This document shows, one piece after another, positions 27,605-49,447 of a DNA stretch of 64,000 bases (positions are counted from its first letter, which is position 1; each line of letters opens with the position of its first letter). The notes under the pieces were generated by a model. That model searched no databases. It was not told where the DNA came from and saw only the letters and a program-made list of their open reading frames with translations. Source of the DNA: an uncultured Bacteroidales bacterium (GTDB lineage: Bacteria; Bacteroidota; Bacteroidia; Bacteroidales; UBA3824); assembly GCA_937877455.1 (NCBI GenBank), contig CALFIU010000189.1:28852-92851 (forward strand). The letters run 5' to 3'. The position numbers were made by a program, and so were the translations under genes.

Positions 27605-27653
27605 ATTATAACACATTTATGGAATTATGCAAGAGTTATTTTGTATTATTTCT
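27605..27653 (-). promoter_or_regulatory. Promoter TTGCAT-N16-TATAAT (TG-extended) preceded by the AATAATACAAAATAA motif
   Basis: The minus strand reads GAAATAATACAAAATAACTCTTGCATAATTCCATAAATGTGTTATAAT. Confidence 0.6.
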
Positions 27654-28354
27654 AAATTATCCTTATGTATGTACAGTTTTTCTGTAGACTTAAACTGATT
27701 GTTCTTATTAACATCAAGTATTCGTCTTATTTCTTTCTGCCATATACATACGAAATCATCTGGAGCATTCAGTTCTGAAATATATACCACATGATCTTTG
27801 CTTATCTGCCTCATATATTCCCAAAATTGTGCAGTATTAAAATCGCCATTAGCATATTTTGTCGTATTCTCATATGGTGGATCGGCATAAACAGCGCATC
27901 CGTCTGGAAGTAAAACATCTCTATAATCCAAACAAGTAAACTCTGCGTCCATTAGCGTCCTCATTTTGGACGCAAGCGACCGTTTACCTCTTAGTGCATA
28001 ATTAACTTGTGCCTTATCTCTTGCATAACCACCAAACCATTTACCACCAAAACTACATGCAAATCCGACAAATCCTGTTAGCGCAGGATCATCGTCTTTA
28101 TGTTCTTTTATGTAATGATATTGTTCTTCCGTAACTGTTTCAGGTAAATCATATCCGTTCTGTAATGCCTGAAATAAAGCAATCAAATACGGCTGATTAT
28201 CGTTGCATATAATCCTATCAAACCCTTTAACCTTTGCTTCTATGTTGCAAGCCCCACAAAAGAGGGAAACCAAGGTTCTACTTAGTGATACCCCCCCCTC
28301 TACGTGCAAGGCAATATCCTTTGCAATCCTTGATTTTCCACCTTGATACCTCAT
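27617..28354 (-). CDS. dam: DNA adenine methyltransferase (Dam-like, D12 class)
   Basis: N-terminal YQGGKSRIAK, FCGACN (FxGxG-like), and catalytic YADPPY. Confidence 0.85.
   Translation of the reverse strand: MRYQGGKSRIAKDIALHVEGGVSLSRTLVSLFCGACNIEAKVKGFDRIICNDNQPYLIALFQALQNGYDLPETVTEEQYHYIKEHKDDDPALTGFVGFACSFGGKWFGGYARDKAQVNYALRGKRSLASKMRTLMDAEFTCLDYRDVLLPDGCAVYADPPYENTTKYANGDFNTAQFWEYMRQISKDHVVYISELNAPDDFVCIWQKEIRRILDVNKNNQFKSTEKLYIHKDNLEIIQNNSCIIP
28291..28298 (-). repeat. G8 homopolymer (coding strand) inside dam, codons 20-22
   Basis: C8 on the plus strand. Encodes part of HVEGGVS. Confidence 0.95.
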
Positions 28355-28358
28355 TGTA

Positions 28359-28366
28359 CCCCCCCC
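28359..28366 (-). repeat. G8 homopolymer 4 nt upstream of the dam ATG (RBS position)
   Basis: The minus strand reads AGTAGGGGGGGGTACAATG. Confidence 0.95.
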
Positions 28367-28426
28367 TACTAATGATGCTTGCTATATTAGATGATATAAT
28401 GTACTTGCCACCTTGGTACTGCATAT

Positions 28427-28867
28427 TCACTCTCCGTCTATCTTTGTTTGTTTAGCTTCGCCATCTAAGCTATCATATGTTCCCATAGCTTCGCGTTGCG
28501 CCAACATTTTCCTGTTTTTCAAATCTTCAAAAAATTGTTCTTTTGGATTGATAAATACATATGCCAGTTCATTTCCAAAGAAAACGCCATAGATAACATC
28601 ATCGCAATCGCGCCATTTTCTTTTATCATCGTCTGTATAAACTCGCCAACGCATTTCAATTACGGTTGTATATTCATCCGTGAGAGCCTGTCCAGCAAAA
28701 CCACTTTTCAAATTAAATCCTGTCGCAGTATCAGCCCATGTTTGTATGAAAACATCAGCCCTGAATGTCGGGAAACAAGTATTCTTTAATATTCCCTCAC
28801 CTTCACTAAACACAAATTGTTTAAATTTATATTCAATCAATTCTAAATTAGGATACCTTGCTTTCAT
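28427..28867 (-). CDS. Hypothetical protein
   Basis: Co-oriented ORF. Confidence 0.45.
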   Translation of the reverse strand: MKARYPNLELIEYKFKQFVFSEGEGILKNTCFPTFRADVFIQTWADTATGFNLKSGFAGQALTDEYTTVIEMRWRVYTDDDKRKWRDCDDVIYGVFFGNELAYVFINPKEQFFEDLKNRKMLAQREAMGTYDSLDGEAKQTKIDGE

Positions 28868-29018
28868 CTTTGCACTCCATTTTTAAAAAGTTTCTGATTT
28901 GGTTGTAACGAATAATATTTATAACATCATCGGTTTTATAATCATCCCAAAACTGGTTGCATAGCCAATCAGCCAACTCATCATCATTCATAGTTCTTAC
29001 TTTGTCGCCGACAGTCAT
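28848..29018 (-). CDS. Small hypothetical protein (56 aa, below the ORF-track cutoff)
   Basis: TAATG stop/start overlap with the upstream ORF, and its 3' end overlaps the next start. Reads MTVGDKVRTMNDDELADWLCNQFWDDY... Confidence 0.45.
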   Translation of the reverse strand: MTVGDKVRTMNDDELADWLCNQFWDDYKTDDVINIIRYNQIRNFLKMECKDESKVS

Positions 29019-29404
29019 TATTTCATTTCCTCTACATCACCATATTTATGTATATCCCATGACCCATCGCTGTAAACCTTCATTTTGTAATTGCCTACTG
29101 CGAGTTCGTTCATTAAGGCGCTTGGTGTTCTTTCAACTTTTTCAAATAAATCACTTTTGGCAAATTGATAATGAAATATAACTGTACCTCCACAAATGTT
29201 GTTAGCGCAACTTCCATCTGGAGTCCAACAATTTTTCAGACATCCATCAGATACACTTCCATAAACATTATCATCTGGATCGTGATAGAAAATTGTACCA
29301 GCTTTCATAAAACCTAAATTTTTAGTCAACATATAATAGTCATAACATGGATTTTCAAACGCTCTTACCGCACCTACCATTTTGTTTCCTCTTCTTATAC
29401 ACAA
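29018..29404 (-). CDS. Hypothetical protein
   Basis: Co-oriented ORF. Confidence 0.45.
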   Translation of the reverse strand: MCIRRGNKMVGAVRAFENPCYDYYMLTKNLGFMKAGTIFYHDPDDNVYGSVSDGCLKNCWTPDGSCANNICGGTVIFHYQFAKSDLFEKVERTPSALMNELAVGNYKMKVYSDGSWDIHKYGDVEEMK

Positions 29405-29738
29405 GATTTAATTGTTTCTCAAAACTTTTCTTTTCCATTGGATTTTTAGAATGTTTGATTCTTTTCTTTAAGGCTTTTATATCATTTTCAAGTAAATGTT
29501 CTGGATCAGATGGTGTAACAATCTCGGCGCTTGTTGGATAATATTTGGACTTATCTATTTTTAAAATATAGCCATCTTTTGTAACCCAAGCATAATTACC
29601 CTCTTCATTATTCGCAATTAAATATCCGAGAGTTTCATCATCCTTTTTTAAATCACCATTGATTTTTTTAATTCTTTCAATTATTTCTTTCAACGCTGTT
29701 TCGTTAAAAGAATTTGTAAGCGTTGGTTCTATATTCAT
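29355..29738 (-). CDS. Hypothetical protein
   Basis: Co-oriented ORF. Confidence 0.45.
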   Translation of the reverse strand: MNIEPTLTNSFNETALKEIIERIKKINGDLKKDDETLGYLIANNEEGNYAWVTKDGYILKIDKSKYYPTSAEIVTPSDPEHLLENDIKALKKRIKHSKNPMEKKSFEKQLNLVYKKRKQNGRCGKSV

Positions 29739-29744
29739 TTTTTT

Positions 29745-29951
29745 TCACCAACAATCCTCGTCATCATCATCTTCACCATCAAAACAATCACCGTCAAAAT
29801 ATTCATCTTTGCGACTTGAATAGTATTCATCTTGTCTTGCTTCGTACTGCGTATGACTCTTATATTCTTCGTAAGTAATTGCGTCACATTTCAAACCACT
29901 ATATATACTTATATCTTCCTCTATAATCACGAAAAATACAGATGCACGCAC
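29745..29951 (-). CDS. Small highly acidic protein
   Basis: C-terminus DGDCFDGEDDDDEDCW. Confidence 0.4.
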   Translation of the reverse strand: MRASVFFVIIEEDISIYSGLKCDAITYEEYKSHTQYEARQDEYYSSRKDEYFDGDCFDGEDDDDEDCW

Positions 29952-29991
29952 TAACAGTTAAAGTCAACGTGCATCTGTTGTCAAAAGATAA

Positions 29992-30537
29992 TTAGTTCAA
30001 TTTTACCCATTCATCGACAGGTTTTCCAAGCTTTCGCTCAACGTCTGTGCAGTAAGCTACACCACCAGCCATCTGGCAATCTGCAAATACTTCTTTTGCA
30101 ATATCCTGATACAGTGTGCTTAACACGCCATGCGGATCGTTCAGGTTGTCATTAAAAAACTGAACAACACAGTTTTTGAAAACAACATATGTAAACGGCA
30201 CATACCAATAATCTTCTGTTGACACGACATAGGCAAATGCAGGATTACCACTGAAAGCAGTTTCAAATAGTTCTTTCGGATTTACAAAAGCCATGTTGCT
30301 AATAGTATGACAATCTACTCCGATTTTTAATGTGACATTTCCGAATGTCTTTTCGGAAGGAAGAAGTTTTAAAAGTGCAGCTGCTTTATCGGGGTTATTA
30401 GTTGCAAGTACGATTGACGGATTCGTGCCATCCACATTTACATTACACGCAATCTGCGGATCGCCATCAAAAAGCGCCTCGATTTCATTGATAAAAGTTG
30501 ACCAAGGTGGAAGAATTCTAAGTCTTACATCTGCCAT
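29992..30537 (-). CDS. Hypothetical protein
   Basis: Co-oriented ORF. Confidence 0.45.
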   Translation of the reverse strand: MADVRLRILPPWSTFINEIEALFDGDPQIACNVNVDGTNPSIVLATNNPDKAAALLKLLPSEKTFGNVTLKIGVDCHTISNMAFVNPKELFETAFSGNPAFAYVVSTEDYWYVPFTYVVFKNCVVQFFNDNLNDPHGVLSTLYQDIAKEVFADCQMAGGVAYCTDVERKLGKPVDEWVKLN

Positions 30538-30563
30538 AATTATTTCTCCTTTTGTGAATTGTA

Positions 30564-32066
30564 TTATTTTGGATTATTTATTTTTAATCCGATTTCGTTA
30601 TATAATTCATCTACTGCACTTTTCTTTCGCTGTAGACAATCATATATCTTCTCATCAATAGTTTCACGAGCTTGCAAAATAATGTATGTACATTTATTTG
30701 TTTGCCCTATTCTATGTATTCTGTCCTGACTCTGTTTAAATTCTTCATAGCTGAAAGACAATGAATAATAAACATTGTATGTACAGTTTACAAACGTTAA
30801 TCCTTTTCCAAGTAATTGAGGATGCGTAAATAAATATTTGATCTTACCATTCCTGAAATCTCTGATAATATCATCTCTGCCTTTGGTTTTTGATGTAAGT
30901 CCTACACCGCCAAACTGCTCGGCAAGTGAATCTATTTCATATTGGAACTGACACCAGATGATTACCTGTTTATCGCCGATTTCGTTTAACACTTCCGATA
31001 AAATTGCTGTTTTATTGGAGAGCATTTTGACTATTTCTGCCCCTTTATTGACTTTCGGATAAACGAAACCAGACACAATTTCTCGCAGTTTCATCAATTT
31101 CGCGGTAAACTCGAATTTTGACCACTCGTTGATGTGAGATTGGATGTCATTTATCATTTCATCATAGTATTTGCGCTGTTCTTTTGAAAGATCAAATCTT
31201 CTTACTTGGAAAATCTTATCTGGCAAGTCAACACAATCTTCTTTCTTTAAAAAGATAGACTGTTCACCGAGGCGCAGATTATATCTTTCTTTATCTTCGT
31301 CAGTCTGAAACCAAACATGAGGATTAGCCATATCCTGATGGAAATATCGCGCAAGAAAACCATAATAGTTATTGCCGAATATCTCGTTGTTTACGAACTT
31401 CATCTGCGGAAAAATCTCACCATTAAAATTTGGACATGGACATCCAGAAAGAACAAATCTATGCGGAATAATAGAAATCATTTCAAGTACCATACTTGTT
31501 ATCTGACTACCCATGTTCTTCATGCAAGAGCTTTCATCTACAATCATGCAATCAAATCCAGCTACACGAATTTCATTCTTCAAAATTTTGTAGCTTTCAT
31601 AATTCATAACGTAAATATCTACATCTTCATTCAGCGCATCAATGCGTCCATCGCGAGAATTTGACCAACAGTTAATGATTTTCTTTTCAGGATAAAACTT
31701 ATTGCAGTCATCAACCCACGCAGTCTCAATAACACTTAGCGGACAAAGAACAAGCGTCTTGTTATAATGCGATGCAACCTCTAACCCCATCACGGTTTTT
31801 CCTGTACCAGTATCGGCAAAGATACCATAGCATCCTGTGTTGAGTGCTTCGTTTACAATATCTTTTTGATAACCGCGAAGAAAGGATGAAAGTTCATATT
31901 CGATTTTCTTTGGTTTTTCAATACTTACATTTTCTGCGACCAGTCCATATTTCTGAAGTGTCGGAAGGGCATGGTCAGGGAAAATCCATTTGCCATCCTT
32001 AAACTTGCGTCCTTCTATCGTTCTTATGTATGGTATCTGTTCAACAGGGATTGTCAGTTCGATCAA
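30564..32066 (-). CDS. SNF2-family helicase/ATPase
   Basis: Motifs ADTGTGKT (I), DESS (II) and QSQDRIHRIGQ (VI). Confidence 0.85.
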   Translation of the reverse strand: MIELTIPVEQIPYIRTIEGRKFKDGKWIFPDHALPTLQKYGLVAENVSIEKPKKIEYELSSFLRGYQKDIVNEALNTGCYGIFADTGTGKTVMGLEVASHYNKTLVLCPLSVIETAWVDDCNKFYPEKKIINCWSNSRDGRIDALNEDVDIYVMNYESYKILKNEIRVAGFDCMIVDESSCMKNMGSQITSMVLEMISIIPHRFVLSGCPCPNFNGEIFPQMKFVNNEIFGNNYYGFLARYFHQDMANPHVWFQTDEDKERYNLRLGEQSIFLKKEDCVDLPDKIFQVRRFDLSKEQRKYYDEMINDIQSHINEWSKFEFTAKLMKLREIVSGFVYPKVNKGAEIVKMLSNKTAILSEVLNEIGDKQVIIWCQFQYEIDSLAEQFGGVGLTSKTKGRDDIIRDFRNGKIKYLFTHPQLLGKGLTFVNCTYNVYYSLSFSYEEFKQSQDRIHRIGQTNKCTYIILQARETIDEKIYDCLQRKKSAVDELYNEIGLKINNPK

Positions 32067-32238
32067 ATTCTTTCATCCTTTCTTTTATGGCTATCTCTTT
32101 TACAAGATATTTATGTTTTCTGTTTTCTTCACACCATTCACAACCGCCGTGATTTCTACAGGTTTTATCTATCGCTTTTGAACCACAATATTCTTTTCTG
32201 TGTTCTTTGCCGTGTTCTATGGCTTTATTAAGGCTCAT
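32041..32238 (-). CDS. Small Cys-rich protein
   Basis: Contains CRNHGGCEWCEENRKH. Confidence 0.4.
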   Translation of the reverse strand: MSLNKAIEHGKEHRKEYCGSKAIDKTCRNHGGCEWCEENRKHKYLVKEIAIKERMKEFDRTDNPC

Positions 32239-32576
32239 GATATCGGATCGCCATTCATATCAAAATGTGATGCCATTTCGACATTCATTTGATATTCCTG
32301 TTCTTCGTACCAGTCTGCGATTTCTTTCTCAACCAGAAAATATATTGAATGTTCTGTCGTGATAATCAATCCATCATCTGCTTGCGCAACGCCTTTGACA
32401 AAAGAAGTAATGATTGACTTGTACCATCCGGGGTCTGTACATGTCATGTACAGGCGATTGTCAATCTTTATATCTTTTATATCAAGGTCAATAATGCGTC
32501 CAATGCGAGCCACAACTTCATCATCTGTCTTATCTTTCCCATCCAAATCAGTTATTTTAACAAGTTTGTAAAGCAT
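32235..32576 (-). CDS. Hypothetical protein
   Basis: Co-oriented ORF with 4-nt overlaps. Confidence 0.45.
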   Translation of the reverse strand: MLYKLVKITDLDGKDKTDDEVVARIGRIIDLDIKDIKIDNRLYMTCTDPGWYKSIITSFVKGVAQADDGLIITTEHSIYFLVEKEIADWYEEQEYQMNVEMASHFDMNGDPIS

Positions 32577-33309
32577 CTTTTACACCTAACCTTTCTTCCG
32601 CAATGCGCAGATATTCTTTATCAAGTTCTATTCCTAAAAATCTTCTGTTTGTATTTATACACGCAACACCTGTACTTCCAGAGCCACAACAGTTATCAAG
32701 AACTAAATCTCCTTCATTTGAATATGTTTTAATCAGCCATTCAAGAAGTGCAATCGGCTTTTGTGTTGGATGTAATCTACTGCTGTCACGAGGAAACGAT
32801 AGAATACTTAAAGGATTTCTTCTGCCATCTTCACTTTCAGAAAATGCTTCGTTTCTAAATCCATAATTTGTTGATAGGCTACTATTCTTTGTTCTCTTAT
32901 ACGGCTCTGAATACCAAAATTGTTTATTATATGTAGGTTTCTTTTTGTAAAATACTGCTATATCTTCATGGCATTTTAATGGTTTAACATTTGCGTTTAG
33001 GAAATCACATCCTCTTTGTTTATCCCATACAAGATTGTATCTCCACATTTTAGGATTTGATAAAAGCAATTTCGCCGTAAACATACCATCGCAAAATAGA
33101 ATTATTGCGCCATTATCTTTGATTATTCTTTTGTAATGCACCCATAATTCATCAAACGGTATCAAACAATCCCATGTGTTTCTTGTGGAAGAATATGGTA
33201 AATCACATAAAACCAAATCAATGCTTTTATCGGGGAGATTACCCATCAGAGATAGGCAATCCCCCCCCCACAAAGATATTTGTTTATTATTATTATTATT
33301 ATCTTGCAT
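32557..33309 (-). CDS. DNA methyltransferase (N6_N4 type, beta class)
   Basis: CDLPY catalytic motif and HPTQKP...VLDNCCGSGST SAM motif. Contains a G9 tract. Confidence 0.85.
   Translation of the reverse strand: MQDNNNNNKQISLWGGDCLSLMGNLPDKSIDLVLCDLPYSSTRNTWDCLIPFDELWVHYKRIIKDNGAIILFCDGMFTAKLLLSNPKMWRYNLVWDKQRGCDFLNANVKPLKCHEDIAVFYKKKPTYNKQFWYSEPYKRTKNSSLSTNYGFRNEAFSESEDGRRNPLSILSFPRDSSRLHPTQKPIALLEWLIKTYSNEGDLVLDNCCGSGSTGVACINTNRRFLGIELDKEYLRIAEERLGVKDALQTC
33261..33269 (-). repeat. G9 homopolymer (coding strand) at codons 14-16 of methyltransferase 32557-33309
   Basis: C9 on the plus strand. Encodes SLWGGDC and follows an (AAT)n asparagine run. Confidence 0.95.
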
Positions 33310-34328
33310 TATTCATTATCCATGACTGCATTATCTTTGATTTCCTTAATTTCTTTTGCCTTCAGTCCAAGAGCTTTTAACTGTGCTTCAAGTTCTTTAA
33401 TTTCCGCACGAACATCTTTCTTCTTCTGCTGAAGCCGCTTCTGCTCTTCTTTCACAGCTTTAGCATTTGTACTCTGCTCTTTTCCTTTTTCAAGTTCGAC
33501 ATTGAAACGTTCTTTCATAGCTTCAATACCATCATCTGTTTCAAAAATACTATCGTCCCACTTGCTAAATCTTTCATTAATTGCCAAATCATAGAAATCT
33601 TTATTGAGTTCAATGCCGATTGCACTTCTATGGTTTTCGATAGCAACCTTATTTACCGTGCCAGCACCAGCGAAAGGATCAAGTATTACATCACCCGGAC
33701 AAGACCATAGTCTAATACATCTCTCAACAAGTGCTTCAGCGAACGGAGTTGTATGTCCGATGCCTGAATTTCCTATATTCCATACACCATCAGCCCAATC
33801 AGCCCATTCAGCAAGTGTAATATCAGATGCCTTAATCAGTTCGCAATCGCCAGATTTTTTATAGACATATACGAAGCCGACATTGGCAGCGAGGATTGTA
33901 TCTCTGGCTTTCATATTCCTATAATAGAGATTGCCCTGTGCTAACATTGCTCTCTGCGCGGAATACTTGCGCCAAAATGCCTTAGTCCATAACTGGAAAT
34001 TGTTTTCAAGCATAATCCTGTTAATATCGCCAGTAATAGATTCCTGCCCCATCTTGTTATCTCTGCCGAGTGTGTAATTGTAATCTTCAAACTGCATGAT
34101 AAATTTACCACCGGGTTTAAGAACACGTTCACACTCAGCGATAACAAGACCAAGCATATAATAATATTCTTCGTAGCTTTCACAATTAGATAGATCGTGT
34201 GGATCGTTCGAGTAAACTCGAAGATTGTGATAAGGGGGGCTTGTCATAATCATATCAACGCTTTCAGCGTCAAGTTTCTTTAGTTCGGTAAGACAGTCAC
34301 CATTGATCCATTTGTTTGTTAATCTCAT
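33309..34328 (-). CDS. DNA methyltransferase (N4-C/N6-A type, SPPY) with C-terminal coiled coil
   Basis: Contains TSPPY and DPFAGAGTV. K/E-rich C-terminal tail. Confidence 0.85.
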   Translation of the reverse strand: MRLTNKWINGDCLTELKKLDAESVDMIMTSPPYHNLRVYSNDPHDLSNCESYEEYYYMLGLVIAECERVLKPGGKFIMQFEDYNYTLGRDNKMGQESITGDINRIMLENNFQLWTKAFWRKYSAQRAMLAQGNLYYRNMKARDTILAANVGFVYVYKKSGDCELIKASDITLAEWADWADGVWNIGNSGIGHTTPFAEALVERCIRLWSCPGDVILDPFAGAGTVNKVAIENHRSAIGIELNKDFYDLAINERFSKWDDSIFETDDGIEAMKERFNVELEKGKEQSTNAKAVKEEQKRLQQKKKDVRAEIKELEAQLKALGLKAKEIKEIKDNAVMDNE

Positions 34329-34348
34329 GTTATGCTTTCCTTTCTTTA

Positions 34349-34414
34349 TTATCTTGCATTATCTATTATACCAAACATAAGATAGCTTGTCAATTACTAT
34401 CTTGTATTATTTCT
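34349..34414 (-). promoter_or_regulatory. Motif-bracketed promoter: AATAATACAAGATAG-N3-TTGACA-N17-TATAAT-N7-GCAAGATAA
   Basis: The minus strand reads GAAATAATACAAGATAGTAATTGACAAGCTATCTTATGTTTGGTATAATAGATAATGCAAGATAA. Confidence 0.7.
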
Positions 34415-35697
34415 TGATCTTCTTTCAGTTCTTGCGCCCAAGTTACAAGCCATTTATTTTTATTCTTGAATGGATCTCTCATCACTTCATCCAAAAGTAA
34501 ATGAAGTACATCGCCGATTTCCTTGCTTGGTTCATATCCAATTTCTATCAAATCATCGCCAGAAATATCCAACTTATCCAAGCTACAACAATCATTATTG
34601 CCGATAATGATTCCTGCGTCAACCTTCATCTGATTTATAAGTTTTAAAAACTTGAATTTATTGATTGGACTTGCGACCGTTGCTTTCGCCATCCAGTAAT
34701 CACACAGATTTTTCGTGTTTCTAAAACCTATCTCACTAATCAGTTTTCGTACTTCATATTTACGATCATCATACTTGAAGCTGATATGTTTATAATCTTC
34801 TTTATGCTTTAGAATATCGCAAATAAGTTTACTTCTTTGGTTATCCATGCGCATATCAGTCAAGATTTCTTTTGGATTATCCGTAAACTGTAGCAACAAT
34901 GCCATTCTTACAGCAAGTTCATCATCTTTATTTGTCGCCATCAAAGACTCGATAACTTCATGATGTTCAAATAAAGTTCCTGCGTTTTTCACGCTATCGT
35001 TAAAATATGGAGTAATACAGTAGAATAAATCAAGGCAATTATAAAGTGTCCTAAATGCACTCGGAAACTGTGTACTCATTATCTTACATGTTTCGGCGCA
35101 AATTCTTTCTTTGGATATGTTGCCAAGCAATTCACGATTATATTGCATAGACCAGAGAGTTTGATTTTCAATTCTAAATCCAAGTGTAATCGCAAATCTT
35201 AACCCACGCATTATGCGCAATCCATCTTCTTTAAACCTATCATCTGGATTACCAACGCACCGAATAACACCGTCTTGAATATCTTCTAATCCGTGGAATA
35301 AATCAACGATGCCTACATCTGGATTATACGCCATAGCATTGATCGTGAAGTCGCGCCTCTTCAAATCTTCTTCGAGTCTGTCAGTGAAATTTACGTCATC
35401 AGGATGCCGACCATCGCTATACGTTCCGTCTATTCTAAATGTCGTGATTTCATATGGTTTATCTTCTATCACTACAGTGACAGTACCATGTTTAATCCCT
35501 GTTTCAACTACTTTGTAATCCTGAAAAACTTTTTCTACAACTTCAGGTAATAATGCTGTGCATATATCCCAATCGTCAGGCTCTTTTCCGAGTATGTAAT
35601 CGCGAACGCAGCCACCAACCACATAGCCAATACTACCGTAGTCATTCAGTTTTTCTAATATAAATTCTACATTTTCAGGAAGGTGTATAATTCCCAT
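34390..35697 (-). CDS. cca: tRNA nucleotidyltransferase (CCA-adding enzyme / poly(A) polymerase family)
   Basis: Head-domain motif VGGCVRDYILG...DWDI and RDFTINA. Confidence 0.85.
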   Translation of the reverse strand: MGIIHLPENVEFILEKLNDYGSIGYVVGGCVRDYILGKEPDDWDICTALLPEVVEKVFQDYKVVETGIKHGTVTVVIEDKPYEITTFRIDGTYSDGRHPDDVNFTDRLEEDLKRRDFTINAMAYNPDVGIVDLFHGLEDIQDGVIRCVGNPDDRFKEDGLRIMRGLRFAITLGFRIENQTLWSMQYNRELLGNISKERICAETCKIMSTQFPSAFRTLYNCLDLFYCITPYFNDSVKNAGTLFEHHEVIESLMATNKDDELAVRMALLLQFTDNPKEILTDMRMDNQRSKLICDILKHKEDYKHISFKYDDRKYEVRKLISEIGFRNTKNLCDYWMAKATVASPINKFKFLKLINQMKVDAGIIIGNNDCCSLDKLDISGDDLIEIGYEPSKEIGDVLHLLLDEVMRDPFKNKNKWLVTWAQELKEDQEIIQDSN

Positions 35698-36721
35698 TTA
35701 ACACACTCCAATTCGCATCTGCGAGAAACTTGTTAATTCTATCGTAATCTGGATTAGGCGGTAAATCAGTATGTTCTTTTAAGTAATTCATTTTTGCTTC
35801 TAACTCATCTACCATTTCATAAAATTCTTTCGTTGGTTGTCTGTTATCATCAAGATACTTTCCGTTCCTGATATCCATAAGAAAATCGTGATCTTTAGCA
35901 CGATAAGTAATAATTTCACCACGCTCAAGAATATCGAAACACATCAAATAAAGTCGAACCAAATGCATCATGTGCTTTGATAATTTGTCGTGTTCTATAG
36001 CATGTTGATTGCGCTTTCCAAGTTTTGAATAATCCTTGACAATATTATTCATCTCAGACCACATGCATTTATAATCACGAAGCGGATAATGCTTTAATGA
36101 CACATCCATAAAAATTTCTGTATCATAGTCCTCTTGTTCTGACTTATCAATATACAGTCTAATTGCGTCCTCTGGATAATTGAAGTATTTTTCTGGATAA
36201 GAATATCGTGTGTTTTCAATACTTCCAAGAATATGTTCTTCACGTTTTGATTGTTCAACAAGTCTAACCGCCTTGTTATCGAGCCTTCGCGCTTGGGAAA
36301 CCGCATAACCTCCGAAAGAATGAACCGCCCTTTTTGAAAGAAACATATCCCTGTTATCAATCAACGCCTGACCAATATCGGAAACATACAAATACTGCCA
36401 CGGTTCTAATCCAAGGATCTCAATCGTATTGGGATTACAATTCGATAGCAAATTGATAATCTTTTCAAGAGAATATACCGTTGTATCAGTAGCTTCATTA
36501 ACAACCTGATCGAAACCTTTTCTTGTCAGAATATCTACTGCCGAATGTGTAGCGATTCCACGCACATCAAGATCGCTATTCTCGTTATTCGTGCCATATG
36601 CATGACTGCCGCCCAATCCAAGAAGAATAATATTCTCGCCTAACGGCTTTTCTCTCAGGAAACTATATTCATCCGATTCTACTTTGCGCTTAATCTCATC
36701 AATCGTCATACTTGTATTCAC
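35675..36721 (-). CDS. Pol-beta-fold nucleotidyltransferase, RlaP-like (RNA-repair-pathway family)
   Basis: LGLGGSHAYGTNNENSDLDVRG is an NTase motif, with a long helical C-terminus (recalled PF10127 pattern). Confidence 0.6.
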   Translation of the reverse strand: MNTSMTIDEIKRKVESDEYSFLREKPLGENIILLGLGGSHAYGTNNENSDLDVRGIATHSAVDILTRKGFDQVVNEATDTTVYSLEKIINLLSNCNPNTIEILGLEPWQYLYVSDIGQALIDNRDMFLSKRAVHSFGGYAVSQARRLDNKAVRLVEQSKREEHILGSIENTRYSYPEKYFNYPEDAIRLYIDKSEQEDYDTEIFMDVSLKHYPLRDYKCMWSEMNNIVKDYSKLGKRNQHAIEHDKLSKHMMHLVRLYLMCFDILERGEIITYRAKDHDFLMDIRNGKYLDDNRQPTKEFYEMVDELEAKMNYLKEHTDLPPNPDYDRINKFLADANWSVLNGNYTPS

Positions 36722-36944
36722 TCATTTCTTCATTAAATCTACGCACAACATCAATTTTATTACTGTGGATATGAACACTCAGAGGCTTAGTTAAATCAAA
36801 AGAAAATATTCCCATGATTGATTTCGCGTCAATAATATATCTACCACTACTTAAATCAATATCTTCTTCATAGTTATCGCAGATTTTTACAAATCGTTTC
36901 ACACGATCAATCGTATTAAGCTGCACAAGAAATTCATTCTTCAT
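36699..36944 (-). CDS. HPr-like small protein (start reassigned to MKNEF)
   Basis: IIDAKSIMGIFSFDLTKPLSV resembles the HPr fold signature. An AAAGGAAG RBS precedes the internal ATG. Confidence 0.45.
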   Translation of the reverse strand: MKNEFLVQLNTIDRVKRFVKICDNYEEDIDLSSGRYIIDAKSIMGIFSFDLTKPLSVHIHSNKIDVVRRFNEEMSEYKYDD

Positions 36945-37095
36945 TTTGACTTCCTTTCTTTCCTTTTGGTTTCTTATCGGCGTTCTTTTTCTGCTCGGCA
37001 GCTTGCTTTCTAAGTTCGTTATCAAGTTTTGCCATAATGCTTTCCCACTTTGCATATTCAGTTCTCTTTCCGCGCTTGCCTTTATTCTTTCCCAT
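36934..37095 (-). CDS. Small basic protein (53 aa, below the ORF-track cutoff)
   Basis: GGAG RBS. Reads MGKNKGKRGKRTEYAKWESIMAKLDNELRKQAAEQKK... and ends overlapping the next start. Confidence 0.35.
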   Translation of the reverse strand: MGKNKGKRGKRTEYAKWESIMAKLDNELRKQAAEQKKNADKKPKGKKGSQNEE

Positions 37096-37264
37096 GTTAC
37101 ACTCCGTATCTGCTTCTTATATATTGTCTAAACTCTTTTGCTGTTATGGATTGAAAAATATCTTTATAATCTTTTTCTATTTCATACATAATCCTTTCTA
37201 CAGATTCGTATATCAAGTACAATGAAATATCAATTTTATCTAATTCTGCAAAATTATTATTCAT

Positions 37265-37888
37265 CTAATCCCATCCGTACTTGTTACCGAAATCTATGAA
37301 GTCTTTATAACGCCTTACCTCGTCTGGAACATCTAACTCTTTCCACATTTCTATGAAATCATTTATAACTTCGTTCTTATTTGTAAAATCGTACTTGATT
37401 GTTGGTTGATTTCCGTATGTATGTGTAGTGATTTCTTTATGATGTCCACGAACTTGTATACCATTTGCGTTTACATCGCAGAAATCTATACCGAGAAAAT
37501 TCGGATAATCTTTCAATCCTTCATTTATAAGTTTTTCAATCCTGACCATTTCACCCTTGAATTTTTCAAGAGTTTCCCTTTTCACATATGGCTTGCGCCA
37601 AAATCCTTTTGTATATAGTTTATTGATATGCTTAACTTGCTTATCAGCTTCTTCCCATCCATCATATAAATCTTCCCATCTGGCGAAAGCGCTATATTTC
37701 TGCAAACACATTTCATCATCAAAGTAGACAACTATCGGATGTTCTTCATTCCATTCGTGAGTCTTTGACAAAACGCATGGTTTTAAATTTGGCTCTATGT
37801 TCTTACCGCCAGTTACATGATAGAAAACTCGCTGACTAAACAATTCTAATAACTGTTTTTGTGTAGCACCCTTACATGGTCTTACCAT
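37265..37888 (-). CDS. Hypothetical protein
   Basis: Co-oriented ORF. Confidence 0.45.
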   Translation of the reverse strand: MVRPCKGATQKQLLELFSQRVFYHVTGGKNIEPNLKPCVLSKTHEWNEEHPIVVYFDDEMCLQKYSAFARWEDLYDGWEEADKQVKHINKLYTKGFWRKPYVKRETLEKFKGEMVRIEKLINEGLKDYPNFLGIDFCDVNANGIQVRGHHKEITTHTYGNQPTIKYDFTNKNEVINDFIEMWKELDVPDEVRRYKDFIDFGNKYGWD

Positions 37889-38054
37889 CCTTTCTTAGCT
37901 CCTTAAATTCACAAGGTACATACTGACCGTAAATATAATCTTTGTCCTTTGCATCACAGTGGAACTTTAATGTAATATTCTTTACATCTAAGTTGCTGTG
38001 AATACATTCTGAACATTCACTCGTGCAAATCATACTTCCACTTTTACGCGCCAT
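37872..38054 (-). CDS. Small Cys-rich protein
   Basis: Contains CTSECSECIH...CDAKD...C. Confidence 0.4.
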   Translation of the reverse strand: MARKSGSMICTSECSECIHSNLDVKNITLKFHCDAKDKDYIYGQYVPCEFKELRKDGKTM

Positions 38055-38468
38055 TATGTACCTCCTGTATTAAATCTTTCCTGTATTTATATCTATGTAA
38101 AGCCTATCTAATCCTGACTCAAATGCGCCTATTCCTGAAAAGAAACTGCTCAATTTAAGGTCATCGAATAGATAAGGCATAACTTTATATAATTGTTTAT
38201 ATATATGATATAAAACATCTACTACTATACTATTTCCAGCCTGTTTATATAACTGACTGTTACTTATTCCTGCTGCTTCTGCTTTGTTAAAATCTTCATC
38301 AGAAAATCCCATTAGTCTAAAGCACTCTTTTGGAGTCAGCTTTCGTATTCTATATTCTTCTAATTCGTCACTTTCACATACTGTTATCGTATCGCTATCA
38401 TCTTCGAGATAACCTTTTGGGAAATAAATAACGCCTTCTCGTTTTTCATATTCTACCACTCGTTTCGC

Positions 38469-38476
38469 CCCCCCCG
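38469..38476 (-). repeat. G8 homopolymer in the C-terminal C5-MTase fragment (codons 29-31)
   Basis: C8 on the plus strand. Encodes IDSGGAK. Confidence 0.95.
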
Positions 38477-38675
38477 AATCGATAGTCCGTATCGCACCAA
38501 TAGTATTATCCTTAAAGGTTCTCAATCCTTCGTCATATCTTCTTTCGCACACAATCTTCATTTACCTTTTCTATCCTCAATATCATGTTTGATGTTTGAA
38601 GTGTCGGACAAGTCCATCCATTGTCTTGAACTCTTCCACGTTTTAATTTGCTTTTGGGGTAACTTGCATTAAATA

Positions 38676-38684
38676 CCCCCCCCC
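38676..38684 (-). repeat. G9 homopolymer at a frame junction between TRD-like segments
   Basis: The minus strand reads GATGCGGGGGGGGGTATTTAA. A G8 tract would read on into VFNASYPKSKLKRGRVQDNGWTCPTLQT. Confidence 0.95.
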
Positions 38685-39030
38685 GCATCACAGAGTATAT
38701 AACCCTTTTTAGTTGCCTGTCTTATTCTTATTTTGTCCATTTATTTTCACCAATACTTTTGGTTCATGCCCCCCACCTTGGCAAGTATTAAGTGTTGGAC
38801 ATAAACCATAGACGGAATAAACTCTTCCCACTTGTGGATTTTTAAAATTGTTTTCTTTTTGAATGTTTCCAAGCAAAATTATATCTTTTGTTTTATCTTG
38901 CATTATTTATATTCTATAATACCACTTTTCTCTTTTCTTCTGTTTCCGATTCCAGAATCATATCTTGCCGTAATGCAGCAAGCCACATCAACAACTCCTG
39001 CACCATTCACACACAAGTCAATACCTTGCC

Positions 39031-39075
39031 TCTTGTCTTGTCTTGTCTTGTCTTGTCTTGTCTTGTCTTGTCTTG
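39031..39075 (-). repeat. Pentanucleotide repeat (TCTTG)9, GACAA on the coding strand, inside the C5-MTase after motif VIII
   Basis: Nine perfect copies. It is translated as (DKTRQ)3 and followed by a stop in the present frame. Confidence 0.95.
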
Positions 39076-39941
39076 TCGGCTTCTAAGACACCATCGTGTA
39101 GTAAATCTCTTATAAGACTTCTTGCTTTTTCTGTGTTGATGTAATACTTTTCATCAACTTCATCTTCGAGCATGTCTAATAAACACTTCCCATCTGATAT
39201 CGGTTCTGGAAATTTAAATTGTCCGTTATCCATTTCCTTCTTGATTATGATTAGATATAATCTTTCTCTGTTTTGAGGTATGCCATAATTCTTAGCATTT
39301 AATACTTGCCAATAACAGTTATATCCATATTCGCCAAGTTCAGATATGAATAAATCAAAAGTAGGTTTAAATCTCTTGCTTACAATATTCTTTACATTCT
39401 CGTATATTCCCCAAGTAGGTTTATTTTCTTTTATGATACGCAACCATTCAACAAGTAGTGAAGATCGTGTTTTGTCAAGGTTCTGGCTACCGCAATTAGG
39501 GCATTTATTTCTTTTTGAATAATGAACTGTTAATGGATTATACTCGCATCCGCAATCGGAGCATTGCCATCTGCTGCCTTTCTGTTTTCCAGCTATTGAA
39601 AAATCCTGACATGGACTCCCACCGCAAATCATTGTAAATGGAAAAAGATTGTGTTCATCAACTTTTGTTATATCACCGAGATTTAAACTCTCATCTACTC
39701 CGTGAATTGCGCAGAAGCTTTTTGTTGCAAACTTATCAAATTCGCAGAAGTTTACAAGTTCATAACCTCGATCCGATAAAACAATCTTTTTATCGTTACT
39801 ATCTTCCATAAACTACCTATTTTAGCGCACTTTGAAAACCGTAACGCTTCACCTTTCTTGATTTTGTCGGCAAGCGAAAAATCTTTTTGACTATTTTAGC
39901 GAGTTTATTTTCACTGAAACGTTAATAAAAAGATTGTTTCT

Positions 39942-40007
39942 TTATCTTGCCTTATTTATTGTACTATATTAACACAATTTAGTCAAGTGTTATTTTGCAT
40001 TATCAAT
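39942..40007 (-). promoter_or_regulatory. Motif-bracketed promoter: GATAATGCAAAATAA-N3-TTGACT-N17-TACAAT-N7-GCAAGATAA
   Basis: The minus strand reads TTGATAATGCAAAATAACACTTGACTAAATTGTGTTAATATAGTACAATAAATAAGGCAAGATAA. Confidence 0.7.
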
Positions 40008-40404
40008 TATGTTTATTTAAAATGCCATGCAGTATGGCCTCTAAATCGACTACACTTTTATCAACCTTAGATGCTATATCATCAATTTTCAAAGTTTCGA
40101 CAAGTCCACTTGAATATATAACATGATATATTACATTATGAATTGTATCTGCTGTATCATAATCTTCTATATAAGTGATAAGACACGGCAACCCAACTTT
40201 AGTTAAAACAATATCGCCAATTTCATATACTCCGTAATAGGATAAGACAGCTTCAGTAACATCATCAAAATCCATCTTATCTAATTTTCGGCTGCTAAAA
40301 CTTTCGTCAGGAAAGAAGCATCTCCATTTTCCGTTTGTGCTTGGATAATCCTTTTTTGCCCTCTCGACTTCTTGAATAATCCATTTAGCTTCGTTATAAG
40401 TCAT
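40003..40404 (-). CDS. Hypothetical protein
   Basis: Co-oriented ORF. Confidence 0.45.
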   Translation of the reverse strand: MTYNEAKWIIQEVERAKKDYPSTNGKWRCFFPDESFSSRKLDKMDFDDVTEAVLSYYGVYEIGDIVLTKVGLPCLITYIEDYDTADTIHNVIYHVIYSSGLVETLKIDDIASKVDKSVVDLEAILHGILNKHN

Positions 40405-40742
40405 TTATATTCCTCTTTCACTGGTATGCATGTTTGTTCTTTTATTTTCCCAAGTTCCCAATCATCAAACAACATTCTTAATGCTTTCTCTACAACATCT
40501 TTTTCTGCTTGATACATAAGCATCGGACACTCAACATCACGAATAACATTCAAAACCATTTCAGCCCAATGTGCATCTTTGTCCGTTACTTCAAATCTGC
40601 TTCTGTACGGTTTTAGTTCTCTTATTCTGCTCTGCGTTGTTAGTGCGCCTGTCTCTGCTGTAATATCCAACACTTCTTTAATACTTACTGGATAATCTTG
40701 TTCAATGCCAACATAGCCCATCTTATAGTCCTTTATTTTCAA
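40401..40742 (-). CDS. Hypothetical protein
   Basis: Co-oriented ORF with 4-nt overlaps. Confidence 0.45.
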   Translation of the reverse strand: MKIKDYKMGYVGIEQDYPVSIKEVLDITAETGALTTQSRIRELKPYRSRFEVTDKDAHWAEMVLNVIRDVECPMLMYQAEKDVVEKALRMLFDDWELGKIKEQTCIPVKEEYK

Positions 40743-41167
40743 TAACTGGAATGTTCTAAAAATGCATCATTAAATATTAACCTATGTGTTCCAATCTCAT
40801 AAATAAAAGTTTCTGAAATAATTGGTTTTAAATGTTTAATAAATCTTATAACGATTTTTTTATTATCTTTAACTACAATTATCTTTTGTTTGCCTCTGTA
40901 AAAATAATGAATACCATTTTCCACATCACTAAGCTTCACATTTTTAATTTGTTTAATACTATTTGTATATTCATATTCTTTGAATGAATTTACCAAGTAT
41001 GATAAGCCATCATTTATGTTGCTTATAAACTTTTCGTACTGTTCAAGTGTTAAATAATCTAATATGATATTCTTACCATTTAATGTTAAGATATAATAAT
41101 CTCCATCAATATTCTTATCTTCGCTGTGTTTATAAAGAAGCATATTAAATAATCTTTTTATATACAT
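40739..41167 (-). CDS. Hypothetical protein
   Basis: Co-oriented ORF. Confidence 0.45.
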   Translation of the reverse strand: MYIKRLFNMLLYKHSEDKNIDGDYYILTLNGKNIILDYLTLEQYEKFISNINDGLSYLVNSFKEYEYTNSIKQIKNVKLSDVENGIHYFYRGKQKIIVVKDNKKIVIRFIKHLKPIISETFIYEIGTHRLIFNDAFLEHSSY

Positions 41168-41185
41168 ATTTAATCTAGATCACCA

Positions 41186-41986
41186 TCACACATTTTCTAA
41201 ACTCTTAAATGTTTCATATACATTGATTATATTTTCGTAGATTAGTAAGTTTGATTGAAGTTTATCTTTTTCTTTGTCGTCAAATGTAGTACAAATTGAA
41301 GTTTTTATTTCTTCTATTTTTTCTTTTATATATTTTTTAAACATATCCTCTAAATCATCCCTCAATTGTGTTCTATTCTTTAAAGCAACGGATACAAACT
41401 GATATATTTTTGTGCTTTCACTAATAGAACCACCGTGTTGACCACATTTTGTTAGTGTATCAAGATTATCAAATATCGGTATTTTAATTCCATGAACATT
41501 TCGTAAAATATCTGTTGCTTCTTTTATTATATTAATTGGTATTAACCAACCTGAATCTTTATTTGTTCTATAGTCATATATATATGAAAGAAACATTCTA
41601 TAATCCGAAATATCAGGGCTATTTTTATGGCATTGTTCGCATATTAAAAATAAGTTTTCAGGCTTATCTTCTCCTCCAAGCATTTTAGGTTTAATATGCG
41701 CTCTATTTAAGTAGTGTTTTGATGTTTTCGAATCCCAAATTCTTTTTAAACCTTTATCTGAATTGTCTGAAATCCACTCATCATATTTCTCTTCTTTTTC
41801 TACTGGAATTACTTTTCTACAACACCAACATTCTGGCTCGCCCCAATCAGTAACCACTTCAATAGTCTTGTCATAATATTCTGGAATATTAGGGTATACA
41901 TTTCCGAATTTATCTATGCATTTATCCTTCCAATAATCAAATATTTTTGAGTGTGGTATCGTAGTACCAGATTTATAATCGCTCAT
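41186..41986 (-). CDS. HNH endonuclease domain protein
   Basis: Contains CWCCRK ... NRAHIKPKMLGGEDKPENLFLICEQCH. Confidence 0.65.
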   Translation of the reverse strand: MSDYKSGTTIPHSKIFDYWKDKCIDKFGNVYPNIPEYYDKTIEVVTDWGEPECWCCRKVIPVEKEEKYDEWISDNSDKGLKRIWDSKTSKHYLNRAHIKPKMLGGEDKPENLFLICEQCHKNSPDISDYRMFLSYIYDYRTNKDSGWLIPINIIKEATDILRNVHGIKIPIFDNLDTLTKCGQHGGSISESTKIYQFVSVALKNRTQLRDDLEDMFKKYIKEKIEEIKTSICTTFDDKEKDKLQSNLLIYENIINVYETFKSLENV

Positions 41987-42047
41987 AAAGTCCTTTCTAC
42001 TTTTTTTATGCGCCGCGCCAAAACACGGCTCAATGAATTATTCTGCA

Positions 42048-43314
42048 TTATTTATTGATTGTTAAATATTTTTGTGTTTTTTCGTTGCCATACTCTTTTT
42101 CATACTTGTCATAATTCGGAATATACATTTTCGTGTTCCCATGCATATTTATGTATTGCATCACAAACCAATATCCAAGACCTTTATTTGACGGTTTCCA
42201 CAAACCATTTTCATCAAATGCGCCGCCTCTTAAAATGTAATCCTGAATCTTCGGATTTGATAATTCTTCAATTAGTTCTAACCGATTAGGACGTTTTTCT
42301 AAATGCAGTCCGAACCCACACATGCAGCATCCAGTCCTTGAACATCCTGTTGTTTTTAAGCATGGTCTATCTAATTCAAATATTCCTTTATCCTCATATC
42401 CCACAACGTCAAATTTAGAACCATCATCGGCTACAATATCACCATATACGGGGCATAATTTTATATCATGTAGAAGTGCATACAAAAGAATATCTTGCTC
42501 AAACCAGAATGACATCGGATTACTGATGGGATTTTTAGCATCAAACATATTACATCCGTGTTGAAGCCATTTCTGCGTTCTAAGCCTACTTTCACTTGCC
42601 ATTTGTGCAGTGATACCTTTTCTTCCTGTCTGCTTCGTATATGTGTGCATTGGTGATTTTTTCATTACATTGCAACACTTATTTGATATTTCAAAAGGAG
42701 CTTCAAGTAAAAACTGCCATTTTACTTGCGTAAATTGTGACTTATCTTTTTCAGGGATATTCGCCTTTATCTGTTGATCCTTCGTCAGCATCCCCAACAT
42801 TTGAGCGAGTCTCTGATTGTTGCCTCCTTTGTGGTTTTTCATTCTGTAATTTAGTATATTCGCCAATTCCTCGGAGTTTGCGATATTTGTTATCGTACCC
42901 CCCCTCGACATTGAAATCAGGCATTGTCTCTTCTTCTATCAGCTTTGTCAAATATTTTCTTGCACCAGATACACATTCCGATACTTCTTTTGATACGAAT
43001 GGATAACCATATTTTTCTATCGTTTGTTTAAATCCCATTTTAGGTTTAATCCAATCAACGTTATCAAAAGTCTTTACAAAACTTCTAATCTCTGGATATT
43101 CCAAACCAGTATCAGAATAGACTGCTTTAATATTTGGATACATTTCTCGTGCAATATGTAAAAGAACCGTACTGTCTTTGCCTCCACTGAACGAAACAAA
43201 CACACCATCTTCTCCATATTCATTTACCCATTGTCTAATTCTGTTCTGCGTCATGCGAACTTTTATATCAAGAGGTAATGCTTGCATTTGTTGTAAGTCT
43301 TGCCGTGTTCTCAT
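42048..43314 (-). pseudogene. PAPS-reductase/DndC-like PP-loop enzyme, split by a frameshift at a G7 tract
   Basis: The upstream ORF has the FSGGKDS PP-loop and the downstream ORF has the Cys-rich C-terminus (CSRTGCCMCG). The two frames overlap, and removing one G at 42898-42904 gives ...FNVEGGTITNIANSEE... Confidence 0.75.
42898..42904 (-). repeat. G7 homopolymer at the PAPS-reductase-like frame junction
   Basis: C7 on the plus strand. Confidence 0.95.
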
Positions 43315-47268: not shown

Positions 47269-47303
47269 GATTTTTCCTCCATGTTCTTTGTTTTTAGTGG
47301 CAG

Positions 47304-47384: not shown

Positions 47385-47389
47385 ATTTA

Positions 47390-47483: not shown

Positions 47484-47515
47484 TCGTGCTATAATAACAA
47501 CCCTTTACAGGGTAA

Positions 47516-49438: not shown

Positions 49439-49447
49439 AATTTATAT

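Follow-up and report, generated by a model that had tools for sequence, protein, structure and literature searches.

What is to be made of a stretch of AT-rich DNA in which the long runs of G fall in genes for DNA modification? The stretch in question, referred to here as the window, comprises the 64,000 nucleotides at positions 28,852 to 92,851 of contig CALFIU010000189.1 (GenBank assembly GCA_937877455.1, recorded as an uncultured Bacteroidales bacterium), and we conclude that the DNA is that of a phage, which is very probably temperate. We propose that the runs are genuine DNA-level switches, that is, simple sequence repeat (SSR) contingency loci that control the DNA modification of the phage, and we hold this reading, drawn from sequence comparison, to be probable. 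In the proposed mechanism each of five modification genes (a Dam-like gene, two N6/N4 genes, a split C5 gene and a gene of the PAPS family) carries at least one repeat of poly-G, poly-C or (GACAA)n, or in relatives (GACA)n, and replication slippage would alter the length of the repeat and thereby bring the downstream coding sequence into or out of frame. Each gene or module would then switch ON and OFF independently and reversibly, and the phage population would be a mixture of “phasotypes” with different modification repertoires. The probable outcome is a phage that changes how its own DNA is modified, as a hedge against different host defences.

The tracts read as poly-C on the + strand, which is poly-G on the coding (-) strand, and the modification genes described below all lie on that - strand. 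All seven tracts of the original prediction, which fall in four modification genes, are present in the sequence, with runs of 8 at 28291-28298 and 28359-28366, of 9 at 33261-33269 and 38676-38684, and of 7 at 42898-42904. A further G8 in the C5-methyltransferase (MTase) gene also exists, one base away from where it had been placed (38468-38475, not 38469-38476), and the G6 at 38769-38774 is real but is in fact part of an interrupted tract, GGTGGGGGG (GGTG6). The prediction had further claimed that long G runs are confined to modification genes, and all six runs of at least 7 do lie there, in 8.7% of the window, an arrangement with a probability of 0.087^6 = 4.5e-7. The sole other C run of at least 6 in the window, at 52523-52528, is near the 3' end of a formate/nitrite-transporter-like open reading frame (ORF), where this overlaps the ORF at 52096-52536. 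Equally borne out is the claim that such tracts are improbable by chance: five runs of at least 8 are observed versus an analytically calculated expectation of 0.11 (first-order Markov model) to 0.19 (independent, identically distributed bases), and six runs of at least 7 versus 0.56-0.91. Codon choice at the tracts looks non-random, in that, of the glycine codons, GGG is used least (8.9% outside the modification genes) and Gly-Gly is spelled GGGGGG in 4 of 13 cases in modification genes versus 1 of 34 elsewhere in the window. Pfam confirms the five genes as MethyltransfD12, N6_N4_Mtase (twice), DNA_methylase (C5) and PAPS_reduct, and there are repeats beyond the tracts originally listed, namely (GACAA)9 in the C5 gene, poly-C in the second N6_N4 MTase and (GACA)n in the PAPS gene of relatives. 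The longer-than-chance repeat in or just upstream of an ORF that characterizes an SSR contingency locus is thus present.

The comparison with related genomes that the original prediction had proposed as a check turned out in its favour. About 25 contigs of the same phage clade, drawn from ENA, Logan and JGI assemblies and collected by looking up the members of protein clusters exactly and by a single scan for a DNA pattern, keep the positions of the tracts and differ in their lengths, with ON/OFF consequences. The DNA around the tracts is 97-100% identical within groups, and the homologous tracts of near-identical contigs differ by 1, 2 or 3 units in either direction, which is the variation in repeat length between conserved flanks that is looked for in close relatives carrying such loci. 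The gene calls on the relatives' contigs match the ON and OFF products predicted from tract length, and protein clusters (at least 90% identity) contain the predicted N-terminal and C-terminal length classes. Frame switching is therefore accompanied by an ON frame that is kept functional, as seen from these ON/OFF gene calls together with ratios of nonsynonymous to synonymous substitution rates (dN/dS) of 0.03-0.24. Within the clade (contigs L081-L105), G or C runs of at least 6 are all in modification genes with one exception family, found at L081 5034-5042 (G9) and probably also at L092 13368-13378 (G11). The ORF of this exception family lies just downstream of a 243-aa N6_N4 MTase that stands in for the C5 gene in some relatives, and its only match is a weak one to N6_N4_Mtase (E=1.5e-4).

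The dam locus carries two tracts with different predicted effects. The D12-class (Dam-like) N6-adenine MTase ORF at 27617-28354 (Pfam MethyltransfD12, E=5e-16) encodes 245 aa from ATG2, and the first ~20 codons of dam are present as two diverged tandem copies (28291-28430, - strand), each ending in poly-G. Tract T2, the G8 at 28291-28298 in codons 20-22 (HVEGGV), is ON at G8 or G5 and OFF at G6 or G9, and would be a plain in-ORF ON/OFF switch. It is G8 in the window, L081, L083, L084 and L098, G9 in L089 and L090, where the Dam calls are shortened to 218 aa, and G6 in L100, while a G5 is deduced from a 3-nt shorter tract in protein P0131 (HVEGV). Tract T1, the G8 at 28359-28366, is 4 nt upstream of ATG2, and the original prediction had assigned it to the ribosome-binding site of dam. 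A G8 does exist upstream of the dam start, but a more fitting description is that it belongs to a second, diverged copy of the 5' cassette of dam (MQYQGGKYIISSNIASIIS..., 28367-28424), which is conserved in relatives and ends in T1, which occupies codons 20-22 of this upstream cassette. T1 is G8 in the window, L083, L084, L089, L090 and L100, G7 in L081 and L101, and G6 in L098. At G7 the upstream cassette would be fused in frame to give a 271-aa protein, and L081 has such a fused 271-aa Dam ORF. At G6 or G9 (L098 has G6) the upstream mini-ORF would stop at an ATGA overlapping the dam start, which would allow stop-start coupling, and at G8, as in the window, ribosomes would cross the dam start in another frame and meet a stop shortly past T2. 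A single-cassette form would be produced if T1 and T2 recombined or if slippage occurred between them, and in L097 and P0132 cassette 1 is indeed joined straight to the body of dam through a single G6, the collapse in L097 being a precise T1-T2 deletion of 76 bp. The Dam cluster contains length classes of 245, 258, 218-222 and 270-271 aa, plus the collapsed 245-aa form.

Simpler behaviour is expected of the two N6_N4 DNA MTases, in which the tracts would be plain ON/OFF switches near the N-terminus. MT250 (32557-33309, 250 aa; Pfam N6_N4_Mtase, E=1e-31) has its G9 at 33261-33269, in codons 14-16 (LWGGD), and is ON in the window; the tract is also G9 in L081, L082 and L098 and is G7, which is OFF, in L099. 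Calls of MT250 that are shortened at the N-terminus, such as P0010, fit an OFF state, which the similar calls P0009 and P0012 may share. In the second enzyme, MT339 (33309-34328, 339 aa; Pfam N6_N4_Mtase, E=8e-33), the repeat is a poly-C on the coding strand within the TSPPY motif (34234-34239), which in the window is interrupted (C6T) and in frame. In relatives C7 gives the ON product of 339 aa and C8 is OFF, with shortened calls of 282 aa in L101-L104, which come from four sequencing runs.

The C5-MTase gene region (38070-39809) has four cistrons, alpha, S3, S4/5 and beta. These had been taken for fragments of a C5-MTase gene, and the tracts do sit in them, but they are not debris: they are the conserved cistrons of an enzyme that, to judge from its motifs, is split and circularly permuted. 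The conclusion follows from alpha being without motif I and beta carrying motifs IX and X and then motif I. Alpha (39018-39809; Pfam DNA_methylase, E=1e-45) contains motifs II-VIII and a Zn ribbon, with core motifs IV, VI and VIII present as GGSPCQDFS, YENVKN and QNRERLY, and its alignment with M.HhaI starts at residue 26 (residues 26-202) and lacks motif I. Beta (38070-38561, ON in the window) contains a target-recognition domain (TRD), TRD-D, followed by motifs IX and X and a C-terminal motif I, and it matches positions 258-323 of the Pfam DNA_methylase profile. The 120 best beta homologues are all 107-267 aa long, those inspected all end in ...GNSIV...MPYLF.DLK..S.FSGIGAFE, and MPYLFxDLKxxSxFSGIGAFE is nearly invariant across a 29-sequence beta alignment. 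In PDB profile alignments, the motif I segment of beta pairs with motif I of M.MpeI and beta aligns without a break over the point at which motif X is followed by motif I in the permuted DRM enzymes of plants (4onq, 7l4h). The permutation is established from these profile alignments and from motif conservation among beta homologues; when the tail of beta was placed in front of alpha in a permuted construct, the DNA_methylase match in Pfam still did not reach into motif I. The canonical order of C5 motifs in one chain is not what is found here, since IX, X and I are on a separate beta, with I after X, and the separation of the alpha and beta ORFs is conserved across relatives, with the same layout in L083-L091 and L101. 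We also considered that the pieces are one gene broken by frameshifts and rejected this, as there are stops between S3, S4/5 and beta in every frame, start codons are present for the individual pieces and all relatives keep this layout.

Each of the C5 cistrons is associated with a repeat. The end of the alpha ORF contains (GACAA)9 (39033-39077), translated as DKTRQ repeats, and alpha reads through only if (GACAA)n has n = 1 mod 3; the repeat would decide whether alpha has a recognition-like C-terminal extension. This read-through extension (38907-39031), which is TRD-A-like (...ACCITARYDSGIGN...) and translated only when ON, forms part of two ORFs of 298-300 aa, P0138 and P0142. The alpha of the window is OFF with respect to this extension and terminates in ...QEARY*. 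The number of GACAA units is 11 in L083, L084 and L089-L091, 5+2 in L085-L088, where alpha is ON with 298 aa, and 3-17 as deduced from cluster proteins. The start of mini-cistron S3 (38709-38903, 64 aa, TRD-B-like, RVYSVYGLCPTLNTCQGGGHEPKVLV) overlaps the stop of read-through alpha (TAATG), and in related phages (P0301, P0331, P0383) beta carries a fused module homologous to S3. Its tract A is the interrupted GGTGGGGGG at 38769-38774, locked ON in the window, and in relatives is G9 (OFF, 46 aa), G8 (ON, 64 aa) or G7 (OFF, 53 aa). Mini-cistron S4/5 (38533-38740, 68 aa when ON, TRD-C-like, IRQATKKGY...SKLKRGRV...CPTLQT) is OFF in the window, where tract B (38676-38684) is G9. It is ON at G8, the length in the L083 group (in L083 itself it is called as a 68-aa ORF), and tract B is G7 in the L085 group and L101. 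Tract C, at codons 29-31 of beta (38468-38475), is ON at G8 in the window and most contigs; the OFF types are G9 in L091 (38 + 128 aa) and G7 in L101 (35 + 128 aa), and OFF-type beta calls include P0290-P0294, P0296, P0300, P0311 and P0314. Tracts A, B and C would all act as in-ORF ON/OFF switches. The four TRD-like segments were recognized by motif resemblance and by the fusion of an S3-like module to beta, Pfam giving no match for S3 or S4/5 alone, and by analogy they may contribute specificity; that these modules alter the specificity of the C5 enzyme is speculation on our part.

The PAPS-reductase-family gene (42048-43314), which has the PP-loop SGGKDS, is split in the window into overlapping ORFs at 42751-43314 and 42048-42911, with Pfam PAPS_reduct matches on both halves. 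Removal of one G from its G7 tract (42898-42904) gives a 421-aa product that aligns over 98-99% of its length to intact homologues of 420-490 aa. In terms of frame, G6 or G9 specifies the fused protein, G7 an N-fragment and a C-fragment, and G8 the N-fragment only; in the window the C-fragment begins at the ATG at 42911, 5 nt upstream of the tract. We propose that the tract toggles between the fused protein, two separately initiated pieces and the N-fragment only. Its length is 7 in the window and 8 in L092-L094, and the PAPS linker of the latter has a second repeat ~80 nt upstream of the poly-G, with (GACA)n of 11, 9 and 11 units in L092 (9815-9858), L093 (6058-6093) and L094 (638-681), respectively. 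This repeat is absent from the window, where MPDF replaces the stretch, and DRQT/DRPT repeats in many more distant PAPS homologues probably reflect similar repeats, which would then be widespread. The proposed role of the gene in DNA modification comes from family analogy (DndC; BrxP, PMC12914056) and from the SSR behaviour that it shares with the MTase genes. NCBIfam gave sub-threshold matches only for the PAPS protein, and no Dnd or brx/BREX partner genes were seen among the annotated ORFs of the window. An HNH endonuclease gene (41186-41986, -) lies between the PAPS-reductase and C5-MTase genes, in a stretch that varies in gene content among relatives (GIY-YIG, HNH, NMN transporter), a pattern suggestive of frequent exchange of cassettes at this site.

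Selection on the ON frames was assessed by dN/dS (Nei-Gojobori), with dS of about 0.5-1.3; in the C5 region about 13% of nucleotides differ between the window and the L083 and L085 groups. The ratios are 0.05 for alpha, 0.10 for its read-through extension, which is translated only if n = 1 mod 3 and has 4/0/10 substitutions by codon position, 0.03 for S3, 0.07 for S4, 0.21 for S5 and 0.10 for beta. The dam body gives 0.06 versus L083, and the N- and C-halves of the PAPS gene give 0.07 each versus L092. Over all ON-frame stretches dN/dS is mostly 0.03-0.1, with 0.2-0.24 in three short stretches, whereas most segments exceed 1 when read in either of the two wrong frames. In the upstream dam cassette the substitutions at codon positions 1/2/3 number 3/0/11. 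We take the low dN/dS, a mark of strong purifying selection that extends even to sequence 3' of tracts that are OFF in the assemblies, to mean that coding capacity has been kept over a long divergence, that switching is reversible and that these are not pseudogenes.

Repeats of the same kind are found beyond the clade, in IMG/VR contigs that carry homologues of MT250. L002 has a G9 at a different site in its MTase, which is OFF, and its relatives P0068 and P0089 differ there by one glycine; these two are counted with the protein variants P0055, P0066 and P0115 as independent tracts elsewhere. L002 also has a G13 (7687-7699) inside motif I of a C5 MTase, and L002, L006 and L073 have G9 or C8 tracts in NPPY-type MTases. 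Just upstream of an MTase gene, L003 and L055 have C7 versus C9. In the L039-L074 group a PAPS reductase contains G8 or G9, with variation over eight contigs (L050 at 12236), L075 has two tracts (4680, 5360) in its PAPS reductase, and a radical-SAM gene has G10 in L073 (12976) versus G9 in L076 (9640). Poly-G was noted also in a C5-like MTase of other lineages, with L069 1307 among the listed sites. The tracts of these lineages arose independently, at other places in homologous genes.

Any such reading must be weighed against the possibility that the tract lengths are wrong. Homopolymers are error-prone, and miscalls in sequencing or assembly could create both the length differences and the frameshifts; moreover, some contigs end inside a tract (L101 in dam T2, L092 in the G11), and the sequencing platform used for the window is not known. 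An artefact of this kind is highly improbable, given that independent datasets and assemblers reproduce the same sets of tracts (L085 = L087 = L088; L083 = L084) and that the C8 of MT339 is seen again in four separate runs. The differences include steps of 2 and 3 units, multi-nucleotide repeats vary as well ((GACAA) with 5, 9 and 11 units, (GACA) with 9 and 11), and the 76-bp collapse between the dam tracts is clean, while the restriction of the tracts to modification genes would be left unexplained by error. Neutral decay, in which MTase genes are dispensable, poly-G runs arise by chance at Gly-Gly and the genes drift to pseudogenes with no adaptive switching, is also very unlikely in our view, even though any single contig has a number of cistrons out of frame and a split PAPS gene is found in each of the four contigs seen (the window and L092-L094). 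The ON-frame dN/dS values stay mostly at 0.03-0.1 and include segments whose translation depends on the ON state (TRD-A extension, S3, S4/5, C-half of PAPS), tract positions are kept across a dS of about 0.5-1.3, and the tracts use the rarest glycine codon. Decay does not account for tracts and three repeat types having been gained independently in homologous genes of other lineages, and its expected signs, stops or indels away from the tracts and a dN/dS near 1 downstream of them, were not observed in relatives.

The PAPS gene provides the case for recoding at the level of expression, whereby transcriptional slippage or ribosomal frameshifting yields constitutive isoforms and the variation in DNA is a by-product. 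Besides being out of frame in all four contigs, the gene has a 150-nt stretch after its tract (42751-42897, -; L092 9946-10092) where dS is 0.33 versus 1.3 for the rest of the gene and where both frames are conserved, down to the same stop in the alternative frame. The alternative-frame peptide, YDNKYRKLRGIGEY, is found inside the homologues P0171 and P0218 and resembles a motif, YFYEKLTGTGKY, that is located upstream of the tract in relatives. This stretch could reflect dual coding or an old frameshifted duplication, and the alternative-frame peptide may also be a chance ORF. We nevertheless regard recoding as an unlikely explanation of the tracts as a whole: at every other tract the variation in length is seen directly in the DNA, with clean ON/OFF gene calls, and runs of G8-9 are weaker sites of RNA-polymerase slippage than A/T runs of at least 9. 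No slippery heptamer or stimulatory structure was found, although no search for them was made, and recoding is compatible with DNA-level switching rather than exclusive of it.

Several observations weigh against switching at the DNA level as the function of the tracts. Two of the tracts in the window, GGTG6 and C6T, are interrupted and thus stabilized and not switchable in this genome. The PAPS gene, split as it is in four of four contigs, has a fused ON state that is known only by extrapolation from more distant homologues. The variation in length was read from assembled contigs, many of which stem from few studies and are not independent samples. The Dam scan described below did not identify the host, and with it the mismatch-repair status, and MTase activity, specificity and any effect on fitness are putative.

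Having weighed these points, we still favor DNA-level switching, and we infer that it takes place at a high rate within populations, as hinted at by the two contigs that end inside tracts and by L086 and L087, which share a BioSample id according to their record names and differ at tract A (G7 versus G8). The most plausible purpose would be bet-hedging, in which modification would evade restriction-modification and BREX systems but would expose the DNA to Type IV systems, which attack modified DNA; avoiding the costs of modification in the lysogen would be an alternative benefit. A bolder version is that this clade of temperate phages of the ruminant gut carries a combinatorial, phase-variable “epigenetic coat” with at least nine switches over five genes, that slippage changes which sequences the four-cistron C5 enzyme methylates and that the PAPS tract selects between dual-coded isoforms, and this we put forward only tentatively, thinking it rather doubtful.

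Other features of the window place the modification genes in a phage genome. These include a tyrosine integrase (4736-5935), replication and metabolism genes for a DnaE-type DNA polymerase, a DnaB helicase and NrdD, a Sak recombinase and five tRNA genes (47303-51914). The left end (36-1873, +), adjoining the integrase, encodes an IstB helper ATPase of the IS21 type together with a reverse transcriptase that shows similarity to group II intron enzymes and to Drt3a, both sub-threshold, and in this left flank there are mobile elements only, with no host gene recognized. A protein with a Tad2-like (anti-Thoeris) domain (24111-24641, -; Pfam E=2e-23) is encoded in the window and relatives additionally encode Lar-like restriction-alleviation genes, which together provide an anti-defence context for the modification genes. 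An apparent RNA/tRNA repair set (25024-27332, 34390-36721 and 49448-50947, -) has as its members an RNA ligase, a KTI12/AAA_33 kinase-like protein, a CCA-adding tRNA nucleotidyltransferase, an RlaP-type nucleotidyltransferase and a DUF2828/DUF7788/VWA protein. The phage also has a gene of the formate/nitrite-transporter family (52460-53083, -; Pfam E=3e-21). The window has 35.4% GC and a strong strand bias, with nearly all genes on the - strand. Syntenic relatives occur on contigs of 50-154 kb, and to judge from the names of their records, a number of these come from metagenomes of cattle or other ruminants. The host was not identified by a scan of GTDB genomes for Dam, which returned matches of 47-58% only, in metagenome-assembled genomes labelled Bacilli and Anaeroplasma. 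There was no close relative in the GenBank phage collection, where the sole match was 181 bp at 74%, and in IMG/VR the closest match to MT250 had 75% identity and the dam double-tract pattern had 0 matches.

How does this arrangement compare with known systems? SSR-driven phase variation of bacterial MTases is well established, with examples in the Type III mod genes of Haemophilus, Neisseria and Moraxella and in Type I and IIG systems such as cj0031 of Campylobacter and those of Helicobacter (PMC5909438, PMC4889913, PMC10123105). As in these bacterial phasevarions, SSRs within the MTase ORF (poly-G, tetra- and pentanucleotide) shift the frame and there are several switches per genome, and a phase-variable DNA methyltransferase, the defining component of a phasevarion, is present here on the evidence of the SSRs and Pfam. 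We do not file the system as a phasevarion, a term reserved for a phase-variable regulon. In contrast to the bacterial cases, the enzymes here are orphan MTases (Dam-like, beta-class N6/N4 and C5) on a temperate phage, no cognate restriction partner for them was seen in the window, and by analogy their expected role would be anti-restriction rather than regulon control. Among phages, the Fletchervirus phages of Campylobacter are reported to have poly-G tracts in genes for receptor binding (Sorensen et al. 2021, as cited in PMC12823448 and PMC12633550), and T2 and T4 to have homopolymer contingency loci (PMC12633550). These loci are similar in having hypermutable homopolymers in phage genes, with mixed progeny as bet-hedging, and differ in that they concern receptor binding or assorted functions, whereas the repeats here are confined to DNA-modification genes, include 4- and 5-nt units and make up at least nine switches in one genome lineage. 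In Bordetella phage BPP-1 a poly-G tract likewise lies inside a phage methylase gene, reported as a single unstudied observation (Liu et al. 2004, via PMC12633550). For the PAPS-family gene the likeness is to DndC and to BrxP, which makes phosphorothioate DNA in BREX type 4 (PMC12914056); all have Pfam PF01507 and the PP-loop SGGKDS, and the phage window differs in that Dnd and BREX partner genes were not seen in it.

Phase-variable MTases are thus textbook knowledge in bacteria, and phage contingency loci have been recognized only lately (receptor-binding genes in 2021, T-even phages in 2025). In our full-text searches of the literature we found no phage with its whole set of DNA-modification genes under SSR control and no C5 enzyme that is split, permuted and SSR-bearing. 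If our reading is correct, repeat-mediated switching in this lineage governs the full set of DNA-modification genes and almost nothing besides, and phages may hedge between defences that hit unmodified DNA (restriction-modification, BREX) and those that hit modified DNA (Type IV). One phage “genome” in a metagenome would then be a cloud of epigenetic variants, and frameshifted MTase genes in viral contigs should not be written off as errors or pseudogenes.

The C5 enzyme has partial parallels in three known architectures. In split C5 enzymes of the M.AquI type, the catalytic core (alpha) and the part with motifs IX-X (beta) are separate, the split being in the variable region. The phage enzyme is alike in that alpha and beta are separate polypeptides and unlike in that motif I is at the C-terminus of beta, there are two extra recognition-like mini-cistrons and there is an SSR per cistron. 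With the DRM-type enzymes (plant DRM2, NtDRM) it shares the direct passage from motif X to motif I, although the DRM enzymes are single chains with the permutation break between motifs V and VI, whereas here the break is between I and II and is combined with a split. The multispecific C5-MTases of Bacillus phages (SPR, phi3T, rho11s) have tandem target-recognition modules between motifs VIII and IX. They are single polypeptides without SSRs, whereas the modules here are separate cistrons in different frames that, by analogy, might confer multispecificity. The phage locus also provides a concrete, clonable system for asking whether C5 specificity can be built from separately encoded recognition modules.

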